Assembly (NCBI GenBank): GCA_964291235.2
Contig: OZ219815.1
Location: 928,001 to 992,000, forward strand
Direction of reading: 5' to 3'
DNA: 64,000 bases
Origin: Vicinamibacteria bacterium
GTDB lineage: Bacteria > Acidobacteriota > Vicinamibacteria > Marinacidobacterales > Marinacidobacteraceae
Part shown: piece by piece, positions 49,033 to 53,917 of the stretch
Position numbering within the stretch: position 1 is the first letter of the stretch
Layout of the letters: each line of letters opens with the position of its first letter
Translations under genes and position numbers: made by a program
Notes under the pieces: generated by a model
The model's database searches: none
The model's input: only the letters and a program-made list of their open reading frames with translations
Told to the model about the DNA's origin: nothing

Positions 49033-49197
49033 ATGGCTGACTGCCCGGTGTGCGCCGCCGCCGTGGAGATATCCGAGGATCCGCTCGAAGGAGAGGTCCT
49101 CGAGTGTCCGGAATGCGGCAGCGAACTTGAGATTCTGGCCCTCGACCCCATCGTCCTGGGCGAGGCTCCGGAGACGGAAGAGGATTGGGGTGAATGA
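49033..49197 (+). CDS. lysW: Amino-group carrier protein LysW (not in the ORF track)
   Basis: [54 protein letters not shown]: zinc ribbon plus the diagnostic EDWGE C-terminus. Confidence 0.97.
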
Positions 49198-50030
49198 GGA
49201 TCGGGTTCCTTCATTCGCTGATTCGTCCGGAAGAGAAGCTCCTCATCCGGGAGTTGCGAGGACGTCCCGGCGTCGAGTTGGTACTCCTTGATGACCGTCG
49301 GCTGGTGTTCGATCTGCGAACGCCGCCCGCGGTTGATGTCGTCCTGGAGCGCTCCATAAACCACTCCCGGGCGATGCACGCCCTGCGGCTCCTCGAGAGC
49401 ATGGGTGTCCCCTGCGTCAACCGCTACGAAGTCTCGCGAAAGTGCGGCGACAAGATCCTGACGGCCGTCGCGCTCCAGGAGTTCGGAGTGCCACAGCCGG
49501 AAACGCGGGTCGCGTTCACCGAAGACTCCACCCTGGACGCCATCGAACAGCTCGGTTATCCGGTGGTGTTGAAGCCGGCGGTCGGATCCTGGGGACGGCT
49601 GCTATCCCGGATCAACGATCGGGAGGCGGCGGAGACCGTGATTGAGCACAAGGCGATCCTCGGCAGCTACCACCATTCCATCTTCTTCGCCCAGAAGTAC
49701 ATAGAGAAAGGAGGCCGGGACATTCGCAGCTTCGTGGTCGGGGATGACTGCATCGCCGCCGTCTATCGGACTTCGGATCACTGGATCACCAACACTGCCC
49801 GGGGGGCGCGGACCTCCAACTGCCCGGTCACCGCCGATCTCGCCGAGATCTCGCTGCGGGCGGCGGCCGCGGTTGGAGGCGGCGTCCTGGCGGTGGACCT
49901 GTTCGAGACCGGTGACGGCCTGCTGGTCAACGAGGTCAACTACACGATGGAGTTCCGGAACTCCATTGACGTTACCGGGGTCAACATCCCGGAGAGGATC
50001 GTGTCCTACCTCCTCTCTTCCGACCGATGA
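49194..50030 (+). CDS. lysX: LysW-amino acid ligase (RimK-family ATP-grasp)
   Basis: [24 protein letters not shown] and [15 protein letters not shown] overlaps the lysW stop. Confidence 0.95.
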
Positions 50031-51052
50031 TCCGCGTCTCCATTGCCGGCGGCTCCGGGTACGCCGGCGGCGAACTGCTACGCCTGATGCTGGGTCACCC
50101 CGAGGTCGAGGTGGGGGAGATCACCTCCGAGCGTCTCGCCGGGAAGTACGCCCACGGCGCCCATCCCAACCTGCGCGGCGCCACCCGGCTCCGGTTCTGC
50201 AGGTTGGAAGAGCTTTCGAAGTGCGACGTGCTCTTCGTGTGCCTGCCCCACGGTGAGTCGGCACGTCGGATCGACGACTTCCGCAGCATTGCCGGCCGGA
50301 TTATTGACCTGGGCGCCGATTTCCGGCTGCGCGACAGTGCTGCCTACGAGCGCTGGTACGGCCGGCCGCATCCCCGCCCGGACCTGCTGGGCCGCTTCGT
50401 TTACGGAATCCCGGAACTGAGCCGGCAGGAACTCCCTGACGCGGACCTGGTCGCCTGCGCCGGGTGTAACGCGACCGCCGCCATCCTCGCGCTGAAACCG
50501 CTGTACGCGGCGGGAGTCGTCGGATCCGCCGTCGTGGAGGTCCTTGTCGGATCGAGTGAAGCCGGCAACACGGCGACCGCCACCAGTCACCATCCGGAGC
50601 GCAGCGGCGCGGCCCGGGCCTTCCGGCCCACCGGGCACCGCCATCAGGGGGAGATCACGGCAGTGCTCGGCGCCGACCGGCTCCATTTCTCCGCCACCTC
50701 GATCGAAATGGTGCGCGGAGTCCTGGCGACCTGCCACGCCTTCACGGACCGCGCGCTCGACGATCGGGAGCTGTGGCAGATCTACCGCACCGCCTACGCG
50801 AAGGAGCCCTTCGTGCGCATCGTCAAGGGCCAGAGCGGAATCCATCGCTACCCCGACCCCAAGATCCTCGCCGGAACCAACTTCTGCGACGTGGGGTTCG
50901 AGCGCGATCCCGACACCAACCGGGTGGTGGTGCTCAGCGCGCTCGACAACCTGATGAAGGGAGCGGCGGGGCAGGCGGCGCACGCGTTCAACGTGATGCA
51001 GGGGCTTCCCGAGACTGTCGGCCTGGAATTCACCGGCCTGCACCCGATCTAG
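50027..51052 (+). CDS. lysY: LysW-aminoadipyl/glutamyl-phosphate reductase (ArgC family)
   Basis: [30 protein letters not shown]....HHPERS and [11 protein letters not shown]. Confidence 0.93.
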
Positions 51053-51055
51053 CAA

Positions 51056-51250
51056 CCGTGGAAGAAGCACCCCGCGCGGAAGGCAGGGCGGGACAGGCGC
51101 CGAACCCGCGGATGCCGCGGCGCGCGGGGCACTTCTTCCACGGGCTGATGACGCGTATCGCTCCGCGATCCGCGCCATCCTCTTTCGCGGGGAAGGGGAA
51201 ACCCCCTCCCCGCACCCCTCCCCCCGCGGCACTCCCCGACCGGGCGAACT
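51056..51250. repeat. Dispersed copy of repeat family B
   Basis: Long inverted repeat 51056-51078/51121-51143, then GATGACGC...GCGCCATC...GGGGAAGGGGAAACCCCCTCCCC; homologous to 26476-26660. Confidence 0.8.
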
Positions 51251-51309
51251 GGCGCGCCGCCAAAGGCCGGGCAAGCGATCTCGGCGCCGACCGCTAGAGG
51301 ATTCCACCC

Positions 51310-51957
51310 ATGTGCCGTCTGCTCTGCGTCCGTGGCGAATCGGCGTTCGAGATGGAAGAGCACCTGACGGCGTTCAGCGAGGTGGCGAGGAACAGCCGCG
51401 AGTTTCAGGGCCACGGCTGGGGCTGCGCCTGGCTGGAAGGAGGCCGCTGGCGGATCTATCGCAACATCACGCCCGTCTGGGAAGACTCCGGCCGGCCGCG
51501 GGGACGTACGGCGCTCCTGCTCGCGCACGCCCGCAGCGCATTTCGGGACGAAGGGATTCGAGTCGAGAACAACATGCCCTTCTTCGACGGCGCCCGGGCC
51601 TTCATCTTCAACGGAGAACTGCGCGGAGTCCGGATCCGCGAGCGGGGAAGGATCGGCGCCGAGAAAGTCTTCAATTTCGTCAAGCGGTTTGACCGTGGCG
51701 ACTTGCGTCTGGCGCTCGAGCGGGGACTCGTTCGAATCGAGCAGCGGGCCCGCTACGTGCGTGCGATGAACATCATCGTCGCCGACACCACCGGCGCCGT
51801 CTCGGTCGCCAGCCGCTTCAACGAGGATCCCGACTACTTTCAGATGCGGCGGGCTACCGTGGGCACCGCCCGGGTGATCTGCTCCGAGCCCTACCGGGGC
51901 TCCGTGCCGGAGCCGGCGTGGACGCCCATTGCCAACGGTACCGTCACCGGGTTCTGA
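51310..51957 (+). CDS. Class II glutamine amidotransferase-like Ntn hydrolase (EgtC/YafJ/Dug3 type)
   Basis: N-terminal MCRLL (Cys nucleophile), HGWG, AHARSA, ENNMPF, FNG and CSEP. Confidence 0.85.
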   Translation: MCRLLCVRGESAFEMEEHLTAFSEVARNSREFQGHGWGCAWLEGGRWRIYRNITPVWEDSGRPRGRTALLLAHARSAFRDEGIRVENNMPFFDGARAFIFNGELRGVRIRERGRIGAEKVFNFVKRFDRGDLRLALERGLVRIEQRARYVRAMNIIVADTTGAVSVASRFNEDPDYFQMRRATVGTARVICSEPYRGSVPEPAWTPIANGTVTGF

Positions 51958-51974
51958 CCACGGGGCCCCGCGAC

Positions 51975-52766
51975 ATGTTGCTGATCAAGATCGGTGGAGG
52001 CGCGTCGATCAACCTGGAGGGCATTGCGGCCGATCTTGCCGAGACCGAGCCGCCGTTCGTGATCATCCACGGCGCGAACGCGTTGCGGGATGCGCTCGGC
52101 CGACGCCTCGGCGTCGAAAAGCGGGTGCTGACCTCGGTGTCCGGCTACACCAGCGTTCACACCGATTCCGACGCTTTGGACCTCATCCTCATGGCCTACG
52201 CCGGGCTGGCCAACAAACGGATCGTCGAGCTTCTGCAACAGCGCGGCGTAAACGCCGTCGGGCTCACCGGCCTCGACGGGGCGCTGGTCCGCGGCCGGAG
52301 GAACCGGGGAATCCGGATCCGGGAGGGCGGCAAGACCTTGATCCGGCGCGACCTGTCCGGAAAGCCCGCCGGGGTGAACGGCGACCTGCTGCGGCTGCTG
52401 CTGAACGCGGGATTCACGCCGGTGCTGACGATTCCCGTTCTCGATGAGCGGGGCTTCGCCATCAATTCGGAGAACGACGACATCCTGGCCGCACTGCATG
52501 AGGAAATGCGCGCCGATCAGGTCATCCAGCTGATCGAGGCGCCGGGCTTTCTGGAAGACCAAGACGACCCCGCTTCGGTGGTCGTCCGCATGGGGCGCTC
52601 CGAGGTCGAGCAGCGGGAGGCGCAGGTGAGCGGACGCATGAAGCGGAAGATGCTGGCGCTCCGACGGTTGCTGGAAGCTGCGGCGACGCGGGTGGTGATC
52701 GCCGACGGACGGGTCGAGCATCCCGTTCGGGACGCCCTCCGCGGGCGGGGGACGGTGATCGAATGA
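51975..52766 (+). CDS. lysZ: LysW-aminoadipate/glutamate kinase
   Basis: IKIGG, IHG, TSVSGYTS..TD, GLTGLDG..V.G.R, RDLSGK and MKRK. Confidence 0.92.
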   Translation: MLLIKIGGGASINLEGIAADLAETEPPFVIIHGANALRDALGRRLGVEKRVLTSVSGYTSVHTDSDALDLILMAYAGLANKRIVELLQQRGVNAVGLTGLDGALVRGRRNRGIRIREGGKTLIRRDLSGKPAGVNGDLLRLLLNAGFTPVLTIPVLDERGFAINSENDDILAALHEEMRADQVIQLIEAPGFLEDQDDPASVVVRMGRSEVEQREAQVSGRMKRKMLALRRLLEAAATRVVIADGRVEHPVRDALRGRGTVIE

Positions 52767-53917
52767 ACGCGCAGGCGACGGAGCGGAGGTATGGGCTGGA
52801 GGTCTATCCCAAGCGGGATCTGACCCTGGTTCGCGGGAGGGGCGCGGAGGTCTGGGATGATCGGGGGCGGCGCTATCTCGACTGCGTGGGAGGCATCGGG
52901 GTGGCGAGTGTGGGACACGCCAACCCGTTCGTGGCTCAGGCGATCGCCGAGCAGGCGCGGATCCTGGTGACCTGTCCCGGCATCTTCTACAACGACCGGC
53001 GGGCGGAGCTGCTCCAGAAGCTCGTCTCCATCGCGCCGCCCGGGCTGACGCGCGCCTATCTCTGCAATTCGGGAGCGGAGGCCGTGGAAACGGCCTTCAA
53101 GTTCGCCCGGATCGCCACGGGCCGCACCGGCATCGTCTCGGCCATGCGCGGCTTCCACGGCCGCACCATGGGCGCTCTCAGCGCAACGTTCAAGAAGGAG
53201 TACCGGGAACCTTTCGCTCCGCTGGTGCCGGGGTTCGCCTTTGTCCCGTTCGGCGACACGGAGAAGATGCGCGCCGCGGTCGGCGACGCCACGGCCGCCG
53301 TAGTGTTGGAGCCCGTGCAGGGCGAGGGCGGCGTGCGGCCCGCCGATCCCGCCTATCTGGCCGCCGTCCGCGCCCTCTGCAAAGAGGCCGGCGCCCTGCT
53401 GATTCTCGACGAATCGCAGACCGGGTTCTGCCGCACCGGCAGGATGTTCGCCTGCGAGCACTACGGGGTCGAACCGGATCTGCTGTGTCTGGCCAAGGCC
53501 ATCGCCGGCGGGGTGCCGATGGGCGCGGTGCTGGCGGGTGACGGGTTGCCGCCGCTCGTCGGCAAGCACGGGACGACGTTCGGCGGAAACCCGCTGGCCT
53601 GCGCCGCCGCGCTCGCCGCCATCCGGTTCATGGAAGACGAACGGCTCGCGGAACGGGCGGCGCAGCTGGGCGACCGGTTTGGTGAGCGCCTCTCCCGCTA
53701 CCCGCTCGCCCGGGTGCGCGCCGTCCGGCGACTCGGCCTGATGATCGGGATCGAACTGCGCGAGCGTTGCCGTCCCTACCTGGAGCGGTTGCTGGAAGCG
53801 GGAGTGCTGGCACTGCCGGCCGGGGCGACCGTCATCCGGCTCCTGCCCCCGCTGGTGATCACCGAGGCGCAGGTGGACGAAGTCGCGGACGCGCTCGTCG
53901 CGGCGTTGGGATCCTGA
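52763..53917 (+). CDS. lysJ: LysW-semialdehyde transaminase (class III PLP)
   Basis: [38 protein letters not shown] and [10 protein letters not shown]. Confidence 0.9.

Follow-up and report, generated by a model that had tools for sequence, protein, structure and literature searches.

A cysteine Ntn-hydrolase gene of LysW operons as a probable non-homologous replacement for LysK

Lysine and ornithine made on the carrier protein LysW are released from the gamma-carboxyl of its C-terminal Glu by LysK (TIGR01902, NF003367), a metal-dependent M20 peptidase of about 340–380 residues that acts through a metal-activated water. In LysK-type clusters the gene order is lysW-X-Y-Z-J-K, with lysK in the slot after lysJ. 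Cleavage of an amide between a gamma-glutamyl moiety and an alpha-amino group is also known from EgtC (PDB 4zfj, 4zfk and 4zfl; TIGR03442), an enzyme with an N-terminal Cys and a small-molecule substrate, and stand-alone class II GATase-like proteins (PDB 3mdn and 1te5; GATase_4) have an N-terminal Cys as well. Dug3 and YafJ are of this stand-alone kind. In the class II GATase fold an Asn-Gly pair forms the oxyanion hole and an Arg binds the alpha-carboxylate of the substrate, while glutamine is recognized through its free alpha-amino group by the Asp of an (S/T)-D-(S/T)-E motif.

The stretch of DNA analyzed here (the window, 64 kb, C1:928001-992000) carries on its + strand, between positions 49033 and 53917, an operon of the order lysW-lysX-lysY-[215-residue Ntn gene]-lysZ-lysJ, made up of the following features.

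49033–49197, + strand: lysW, amino-group carrier protein, 54 residues, zinc ribbon, C-terminus ...EEDWGE (PF21344, 58.9 bits; TIGR01206, 58.1 bits, cut-off 53.2)
49194–50030, + strand: lysX (or argX), ATP-grasp ligase loading LysW (TIGR02144, 324.9 bits, cut-off 275.6; RimK and LysX_preATP_grasp domains)
50027–51052, + strand: lysY, ArgC-type reductase (argC model TIGR01850, 367.5 bits, cut-off 233.6; semialdehyde dehydrogenase domains)
51053–51309, no strand: insertion between lysY and the Ntn gene, one copy of a short repeat dispersed in the genome and outside the pathway (blastn matches and inverted repeat)
51310–51957, + strand: Ntn hydrolase of 215 residues with an N-terminal Cys and a class II GATase fold resembling that of EgtC, proposed to serve as [LysW]-gamma-glutamyl amidohydrolase and LysK analogue (family, fold, gene context and genome distribution)
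51975–52766, + strand: lysZ, [LysW]-aminoadipate/glutamate kinase (NF010659, 247.7 bits, cut-off 223)
52763–53917, + strand: lysJ, class III aminotransferase (PF00202, 377 bits; TIGR00707, 426.8 bits, cut-off 410.05)

This single-strand order, read from the sequence in the initial annotation, is confirmed by the profile scores: LysW, LysX and LysZ pass equivalog cut-offs, and LysY and LysJ pass those of the ArgC and ArgD families, LysJ remaining under the cut-off of the LysJ_Th_th model (480.7 bits; cut-off 700). The core set of the LysW pathway, a LysW ending in ...EDWGE together with LysX, LysY, LysZ and LysJ, is complete in the window. The longest lysZ reading frame opens with a GTG at 51918, and the family model NF010659 aligns from residue 20 of this long frame, which places the start at the ATG at 51975; counted to this ATG, the gap behind the Ntn stop codon, which ends at 51957, is the 17 nt first reported.

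The Ntn protein, which begins MCRLL, belongs to a compact family with the N-terminus Met-Cys-Arg, of which a search of 1.84 billion proteins recovered 301 representatives (E≤1e-3). It reaches no Pfam cut-off (GATase_4, E 0.016) and fails that of the EgtC model TIGR03442 (38.5 bits; cut-off 218.65). Membership of the LysK family was considered and rejected, since profile searches gave no match to M20 families; the protein is instead a candidate functional analogue, not homologous to LysK. The AF2 model (mean pLDDT 96.4) has the four-layer Ntn fold, and its best PDB matches in Foldseek are EgtC chains (TM 0.80–0.82, E about 1e-12, 16–18% identity); EgtC, 3mdn, PurF and GlmS glutaminase domains are all matched with probability 1.00. 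Among 44 diverse members C2, R3, R75, N101, G113 and G116 are invariant, and M1 and G102 are conserved in at least 90%, so that Cys becomes the first residue once Met1 is removed. The N-terminal Cys and the EgtC-like class II fold recognized in the initial annotation are thus borne out.

The family profile matches 3mdn (E 1e-9, positions 22–212), and in the alignment with 3mdn and EgtC N101-G102 falls on the NG motif and R75 on the HxR motif. The invariant G116, on the other hand, is paired with the Asp of 'TDSE' in 3mdn (HMMER posterior 8–9), and also, at low hhalign probability, with the Asp of the same motif in the PurF of this genome; by these sequence alignments the family has Gly where class II GATases, EgtC included, have Asp. 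This exchange fits a substrate whose glutamate is the last residue of a protein, because the terminal Glu of LysW lacks a free alpha-amino group, and R75 could bind the alpha-carboxylate that this Glu retains. Compared with the stand-alone GATase-like proteins, with which it shares fold and N-terminal Cys, the family stands apart by its own invariant set, its score under the GATase_4 cut-off and its embedding in LysW operons. The protein had also been described as Arg-rich, which holds for the window copy (pI 10.0, net charge +8); the family is not uniformly basic (pI above 8 in 24 of 44 members), and a basic patch is no family-wide trait on which an argument could be built.

We then looked at the genomic surroundings of the family. 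In the close set, consisting of the best 80 loci from genome_contigs, linkage was counted up to a distance of 400 nt behind lysY or lysX; the Ntn gene lies directly downstream of lysY in 78 of the 80 loci (lysX in one of these), and the full set of five lys genes is present in 67. For a distant subfamily (28–36% identity), 61 metagenome loci had enough upstream sequence (more than 600 nt) to be assessed; in 59 of them lysJ is directly upstream of the Ntn gene, so that the distant Ntn gene occupies the slot usually taken by lysK. Moreover, the lysY-lysZ interval of L123 and L144 contains genes for the large and small subunits of homoaconitase, accompanied by homoisocitrate dehydrogenase in L123 and homocitrate synthase in L144, and the same interval holds a full homocitrate synthase gene in L162 and a fragment of one in L115. 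Distant loci with such alpha-aminoadipate-pathway genes look like lysine operons short of LysK alone. The linkage to lysW clusters, which the initial annotation proposed to examine, is thus strong; four of the 141 assessable loci (L077, L106, L176 and L178) have no lys neighbors, which counts against the proposal.

LysK itself was sought in the window, in the genome and around the Ntn loci. As first noted, the window has no M20 gene, all 20 Peptidase_M20 matches of the genome lying outside it, and none of them is a LysK by score: in the genome (90.29% complete, 2 contigs) the best M20 reaches 78.1 bits with TIGR01902 (cut-off 163.1). This best-scoring gene, DapE/ArgE-like, of 337–350 residues and located beside fabF and mutY, obtains 109 bits with the [LysW]-lysine hydrolase model NF003367 (cut-off 363). 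It is found in 41 of 41 relatives, those devoid of LysX included, and therefore does not track the LysW pathway. A tblastn search with two M20 queries over 160 Ntn loci (±7 kb) gave no match at E≤1e-3.

The distribution of the two hydrolases was compared in three genome samples, comprising 41 relatives, 301 Acidobacteriota and 151 Gemmatimonadota. LysX exceeds its cut-off in 22 of the relatives and is present in two pieces in one more (G028), giving 23; 22 of these carry the Ntn gene while no LysK exceeds the cut-off, the remaining one (G032) lacks the Ntn gene and has a LysK of 294 bits, and the 18 relatives without LysX have neither. Among the Acidobacteriota, 33 of 301 genomes have LysX, 17 with the Ntn gene only and 16 with LysK only; the corresponding figures for the Gemmatimonadota are 12 of 151, 10 and 2. 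In none of the three samples does a LysX genome have both genes or neither, and the Ntn gene occurs in 0 of the 19 LysK-type genomes. The anti-correlation foreseen in the initial annotation thus takes the form of a strict either/or (Ntn to LysK 22:1, 17:16 and 10:2), produced by few independent switches. Indeed, the LysX tree unites the close Ntn-type clusters in a single clade (support 99) and places the distant type on one side of a branch (95), with only two changes of label between Ntn and LysK needed; because the tree requires about two switches, the genome counts are not independent and represent few independent events. LysW clusters appear to move between phyla as units. LysX is likewise present in the two genomes with an unlinked Ntn gene, G493 (339 bits) and G494 (333 bits), and in neither does a LysK pass the cut-off. 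In G066, which has no LysX, there remain a 39-residue lysJ fragment and an Ntn remnant deprived of its first 39 residues, Cys2 among them; pathway and Ntn gene decay together there, in favor of a role of the Ntn protein in the pathway.

From the observed gene order, fold, conserved residues and genome distribution we infer the substrate and the reaction: the gene at 51310–51957 probably encodes a cysteine amidohydrolase for the last step of the LysW pathway, that is, a functional replacement of LysK unrelated to it by descent. This reading, a Cys nucleophile in place of LysK, was that of the initial annotation, and comparative genomics supports it through linkage and the either/or distribution, every computational check suggested there having turned out in its favor; we found no description of such a replacement in print. 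After removal of Met1, Cys2 would attack the amide joining the gamma-carboxyl of the C-terminal Glu of LysW to the alpha-amino group of the finished amino acid, which would be freed, most likely as ornithine in this genome and as lysine in the operons of the distant subfamily. Hydrolysis of the resulting thioester would then regenerate LysW. The same amino acid would be released as by LysK, through a covalent thioester, as the fold suggests, rather than a metal-activated water. Ornithine is the more likely product here than lysine. Among the points against the proposal, this genome has no ornithine carbamoyltransferase that would account for the use of the presumed ornithine, and one of its approximately 20 M20 proteins could hydrolyze LysW adducts on the side.

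The C-termini of LysW bear on a related role. Of 99 LysW sequences linked to an Ntn gene, 83, including that of the window, end in Glu and 15 in ...EDWGQ, whereas all 17 LysK-linked ones end in ...EDWGE; this contrast (15/99 vs 0/17) is small and confounded by lineage. The sequences ending in Gln are spread over six or more branches of the LysX tree, and such a carrier becomes usable for LysX only once its terminal Gln has been deamidated. The Ntn protein might accordingly serve solely to mature LysW, by deamidating a C-terminal Gln or repairing amidated carrier, a promiscuous M20 enzyme encoded elsewhere freeing lysine or ornithine. The numerous M20 paralogues of the genome, one of them with the weak LysK similarity described above (78–109 bits), would allow for this. 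We consider it unlikely, as the Ntn gene is kept where LysW already ends in Glu, the DapE/ArgE-like M20 is present in all relatives regardless of LysX, and a factor for maturation alone would not be expected to show a strict either/or pattern with LysK. The Gln-ending sequences also count for replacement of LysK, because deamidation is the same gamma-amide hydrolysis at the same residue. It is conceivable, though we hold it only tentatively, that the family is a dedicated hydrolase of the LysW C-terminal gamma-amide with two jobs, release of lysine or ornithine and activation of the carrier by conversion of Gln to Glu. If so, the LysW cycle of lineages with a Gln end would rely on a Cys-Ntn enzyme at both ends, and a widespread unannotated enzyme would fill the apparent LysK gap in many Acidobacteriota, Gemmatimonadota and Gammaproteobacteria. 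To judge from two source names, the family may also be present in bacteria of the candidate phyla radiation and in DPANN archaea.

An accessory function is a further alternative, in which the protein would be a proofreading or salvage amidase for misloaded or dead-end LysW adducts, or for other gamma-glutamyl amides, and not the enzyme of the last step. The EgtC-like fold and chemistry and the location in the operon would suit such an amidase, but every Ntn-type genome would be left without a release enzyme, and the absence of the gene from LysK-type genomes would be unexplained; we regard this as quite improbable. That the protein is the EgtC of the organism, active in ergothioneine synthesis and placed in a lys operon by chance, is suggested by its closest structural match and by the egtB-egtD pair of the genome, located on its other contig (EgtB, 456.7 bits, cut-off 360; EgtD, 329.1 bits, cut-off 290.9). 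Against this, the TIGR03442 score is far too low, the Asp for the free alpha-amino group that the EgtC substrate possesses is replaced by Gly, and no Ntn gene stands beside egtB-egtD. Across genomes the Ntn gene tracks LysX and not the egt genes: EgtB exceeds its cut-off in 29 of the 41 relatives; nine of these 29 lack the Ntn gene, and in G030 and G038, which do carry it, no EgtB reaches the cut-off. An ergothioneine enzyme is therefore most improbable. Equally improbable is a glutaminase subunit feeding ammonia to the partner of some amidotransferase, as the class II fold and catalytic residues might suggest, given a stand-alone protein of 215 residues with no synthase domain and no Asp to bind free glutamine, in a pathway for which we know of no ammonia-requiring step.

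A complex of Ntn residues 2–215 with LysW was also modeled. The model scores 0.47, the best of three controls 0.00, with contact agreement between runs of at least 98% and partner pLDDT of at least 82. Of 80 solved complexes 58 pass the mark used, as do 2 of 110 mismatched pairs; passes with a score of 0.60 or less come from just 7 of the 80 solved complexes but include both of those mismatches. The modeling suggested in the initial annotation thus gives weak support to an Ntn-LysW complex.

Finally, as a correction to the initial annotation, lysY and the Ntn gene are not adjacent in the window but separated by 258 nt. The insertion between them (51053–51309) has 14 blastn matches at 12 other places of the genome (72–90% identical) and no match in Rfam, and contains an inverted repeat with arms of 23 nt each at 51056–51078 and 51121–51143, 91% complementary. 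At homologous loci the lysY-Ntn gap has a median of 34 nt (77 of the 80 close loci, those with a lysY match).

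In the described routes to lysine and ornithine that run on LysW, the amino-group carrier protein, the product is released by LysK, an M20 metallopeptidase. The lys region of the window comprises seven features, all of them on the + strand:

49033–49197, +, lysW, 54 aa with C-terminus ...EEDWGE (Pfam and NCBIfam, above the equivalog cut-off)
49194–50030, +, lysX (Pfam and NCBIfam, above the equivalog cut-off)
50027–51052, +, lysY (Pfam and NCBIfam)
51053–51309, 258-nt lysY–Ntn gap, a dispersed-repeat copy
51310–51957, +, Ntn ORF, 215 aa with N-terminus MCRLL
51975, +, lysZ, ATG start agreeing with the family model, 17 nt past the Ntn stop (above the equivalog cut-off)
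52763–53917, +, lysJ (Pfam and NCBIfam)

The initial annotation had described this layout (lysW-X-Y-Ntn-Z-J, with 17 nt before lysZ) and the absence of an M20 gene from the window. The former is confirmed by Pfam, NCBIfam and reading of the sequence, and none of the 20 Peptidase_M20 matches of the genome falls in positions 928001–992000 of contig C1. A known riboswitch or leader in the gap is ruled out by an empty Rfam scan of 48000–54500 (E ≤ 1). Its sequence is that of a small dispersed repeat resembling a MITE or REP element (14 blastn matches at 12 further places of the genome, 72–90% identical), and this copy carries a 23-nt inverted repeat. Given that the lysY–Ntn gap has a median of 34 nt in close homologous loci versus 258 nt here, the repeat looks like a recent insertion within the operon. 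Immediately 5' of lysW lies a 254-aa ORF (48202–48966) with no Pfam or NCBIfam match, which occupies the same position, 89–95% identical, in 13 closely related acidobacterial loci and is not present in the Gemmatimonadota or Gammaproteobacteria loci. At about 46300–47100, upstream of a minus-strand TPR-like gene, the translations of overlapping ORFs contain two near-identical stretches, which suggests that a few hundred bases of DNA are directly repeated here.

We consider it likely that the Ntn protein acts as a hydrolase with a Cys nucleophile and takes the place of LysK, to which it is not orthologous, as the initial annotation had proposed. The comparative evidence, from which we infer both substrate and reaction, supports this reading well: the fold and the conserved residues agree with it, linkage occurs in two independent gene orders, the gene co-occurs with LysX where it is unlinked and decays where the cluster does, and the complementarity with LysK has no exception.

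No lysK was found elsewhere in the genome (90.29% complete) either. Scored with the LysK model, the top protein of the genome (78.1 bits, under every curated cut-off) is a DapE/ArgE-like one of 337–350 aa encoded beside fabF and mutY (locus L007). This gene is unlikely to be a hidden LysK: M20 proteins with a similar score below the cut-off turn up in 41 of 41 relatives, with or without LysX, and thus do not track the pathway. The DapE/ArgE-like protein may have a side activity on LysW adducts.

The Ntn subfamily is indeed linked to lysW clusters, and in two different arrangements. Among the best 80 loci retrieved from genome contigs (58–83% identical to the window protein), which by record title belong to Acidobacteriota/Vicinamibacteria, Gemmatimonadota/Longimicrobiales and Gammaproteobacteria, the Ntn gene directly follows lysY or lysX in 78, and all five lys genes are present in 67. 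The two exceptions (L077 and L106) have neighbours unrelated to lys; their genomes still carry LysX (339 and 333 bits) and have no LysK above the cut-off. Eight of the Gammaproteobacteria loci (within L028–L107) are without lysZ and lysJ downstream. A distant subfamily from metagenomes, 28–36% identical to the window protein, has lysJ directly upstream in 59 of 61 loci whose upstream sequence exceeds 600 nt, in the order lysW-lysX-lysY-(gap)-lysZ-lysJ-Ntn. As LysK-type acidobacterial clusters run lysW-X-Y-Z-J-K, this subfamily sits in the slot of LysK itself. In four distant-type loci the lysY–lysZ gap holds genes of homocitrate and α-aminoadipate metabolism: both homoaconitase subunits, large and small, of the α-aminoadipate pathway in L123 and L144, with homoisocitrate dehydrogenase in the former and homocitrate synthase in the latter, a full homocitrate synthase in L162 and a fragment of one in L115. 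These look like lysine operons lacking LysK only. Searching the surroundings of 160 loci by tblastn with a true LysK (from relative G032) and with the best M20 protein of the source genome gave no match at E ≤ 1e-3. In L162 the gene next after the Ntn gene (7727–9775) codes for a class II aminoacyl-tRNA synthetase (Asp/Lys/Asn type) to which an HD domain is added.

Across genomes, the anti-correlation with lysK takes an either/or form in every LysX-bearing genome of three samples, with no genome carrying both the Ntn gene and LysK and no LysX genome carrying neither. LysX is above its cut-off in 22 of 41 relatives and split into two pieces in one more (G028); 22 of these 23 have the Ntn gene and no LysK above the cut-off, the other (G032) carries LysK (294 bits) instead of the Ntn gene, and the 18 relatives without LysX have neither. 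Thirty-three of 301 Acidobacteriota carry LysX, 17 with the Ntn gene only and 16 with LysK only, and the corresponding figures for 151 Gemmatimonadota are 12 with LysX above the cut-off, 10 with the Ntn gene only and 2 with LysK only. Weak matches in G048, G130, G155 and G160 (43–47 bits), none of which has LysX, were taken as other GATase-like proteins and left out of the acidobacterial Ntn count; G403 (174 bits, under the LysX cut-off) was left out of the LysX count of the Gemmatimonadota. Outside the LysX-bearing set fall G200 (143 bits, under the LysK cut-off) and G262 (LysK at 324 bits, LysX not found), and none of LysX, Ntn gene and LysK was found in G002 (66% complete). Two unpublished genomes are counted, G033 among the relatives (none of the three genes) and G186 in the acidobacterial sample (Ntn gene and LysX); the pattern is independent of both. 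The Ntn gene also decays with its surroundings: G066, a genome without LysX, holds a decayed cluster (L212, contig C7, 6962–7532, minus strand) in which a 39-aa lysJ fragment is followed by an Ntn remnant without its first 39 residues, Cys2 included.

A LysX tree was built from 26 close-type rows (every third close locus, 25 of 76, and the LysX of the window), together with all 24 distant-type and 15 LysK-type sequences whose HSP spans 250 aa or more. The close Ntn type forms one clade (support 99), the distant type lies on one side of a branch (support 95) and the LysK type falls between them. Since only two label changes are required on this tree, the genome counts are not independent, and their strength is the absence of exceptions rather than the raw numbers. 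The close type, with the whole lysW-X-Y-Ntn-Z-J cluster, spans three phyla at 60–80% identity (L028–L107) and these phyla are mixed on the tree, which suggests that the whole cluster was transferred horizontally between phyla.

The LysW carriers themselves were compared at their C-termini. Of 99 Ntn-linked LysW, 83 end in ...EDWGE, 15 in ...EDWGQ and one is frameshifted, versus 17 of 17 examined LysK-linked LysW that end in Glu. All Gln-ending forms belong to Ntn-type clusters (L090, L092, L096, L098, L101, L105, L115, L116, L118, L119, L152, L153, L160, L163 and L169). LysX requires a γ-carboxylate on the C-terminal residue of LysW, so that a Gln-ending LysW must first shed its amide; these genes thus predict a carrier-activating step so far undescribed for LysW. 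Chemically this removal would equal the proposed Ntn release step, at the identical residue; we take this as a lead, and likewise the contrast of 15/99 versus 0/17, which is small and confounded by lineage. Were the Ntn protein only to mature LysW in this manner, with release left to a promiscuous M20 protein, the retention of its gene where LysW already ends in Glu would not be accounted for, nor would the either/or pattern with LysK. With a proofreading amidase, or likewise a glutaminase subunit, the pathway would have no enzyme for the release.

The predicted complex of Ntn residues 2–215 with LysW gives weak support for an interaction, at a score of 0.47, the best of three controls scoring 0.00; at least 98% of contacts are shared between runs, and the partner pLDDT is at least 82. 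Of the reference pairs, 58 of 80 solved complexes pass the mark, as do 2 of 110 mismatched pairs; at scores of 0.60 or below, only 7 of the 80 solved complexes pass, and so do both of these mismatches. A basic patch for LysW, also suggested in the initial annotation, does not emerge as a family trait, whole-protein pI not being conserved.

The Ntn protein falls under every Pfam cut-off (GATase_4, E 0.016). Its family is compact: of 3356 candidates from a word-based search, 3002 proteins match at E ≤ 1e-3, and an exhaustive HMMER search of 1.84 billion proteins found 301 cluster representatives at the same threshold. Members are listed without a name or as 'hypothetical protein', 'predicted glutamine amidotransferase' or 'class II glutamine amidotransferase'; those of full length have about 195–250 aa and nearly all begin Met-Cys-Arg. 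C2, R3, W57, R75, P90, N101, G113 and G116 are invariant in 44 diverse members. The AlphaFold2 model (mean pLDDT 96.4) matches best, in the PDB, EgtC chains (TM 0.80–0.82, E about 1e-12), followed by 3mdn, 1te5 and then the glutaminase domains of PurF and GlmS; the family profile hits both 3mdn (E 1e-9) and EgtC (E 2.8e-6). In the 3mdn alignment G116 stands opposite the Asp of the 'TDSE' motif (posterior 8–9), and it is again placed at this motif in a weak hhalign comparison with the PurF of the genome (probability 1%). In class II amidotransferases this Asp holds the free α-amino group of glutamine. Its apparent loss, with Cys, Arg and Asn-Gly kept, fits what would be expected if the glutamyl residue ends a polypeptide. 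A role as the EgtC of ergothioneine synthesis, to which an egtB-egtD pair on another contig might point, is rejected, as EgtB is found in 9 relatives that lack the Ntn gene and stays under its cut-off in 2 that carry it, and the EgtC model gives the Ntn protein 38.5 bits against a cut-off of 218.65. The pair lies at C2:210164–212400 (L211, 7132–9370) with neither egtA nor egtC adjoining, and a second EgtB-like gene (316 bits, under the cut-off) at C2:1077117–1078364.

In open-access PMC and bioRxiv full text, neither an Ntn/GATase-type substitute nor any other alternative to LysK was found, and the passages retrieved from PMC3249071, bioRxiv 10.1101/2021.12.28.474397 and 10.1101/2025.02.15.638363 hold nothing bearing on its replacement. 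If correct, the exchange of LysK for a non-homologous Cys-Ntn hydrolase would add a new instance of analogous enzymes in a core amino-acid pathway, would assign a function to the family with its 3002 or more proteins and would show the EgtC-type fold to be able to act on a protein C-terminus. It would also close an apparent gap in pathway reconstruction for many uncultured members of the Acidobacteriota, Gemmatimonadota and Gammaproteobacteria (several with sponge-associated MAG names).

As to the product in the source genome, homocitrate synthase was not found (at 90.29% completeness), the only HCS_D2 protein being LeuA, encoded beside leuC, and LysA is present (395 bits). The only ArgB-like gene is the lysZ of the window, ArgJ and ornithine carbamoyltransferase were not found, and the only carbamoyltransferase is PyrB. 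According to passages of PMC11651109, host-associated Gemmatimonadota use a LysW-glutamate route to ornithine; the cluster of the window most likely converts glutamate to ornithine.
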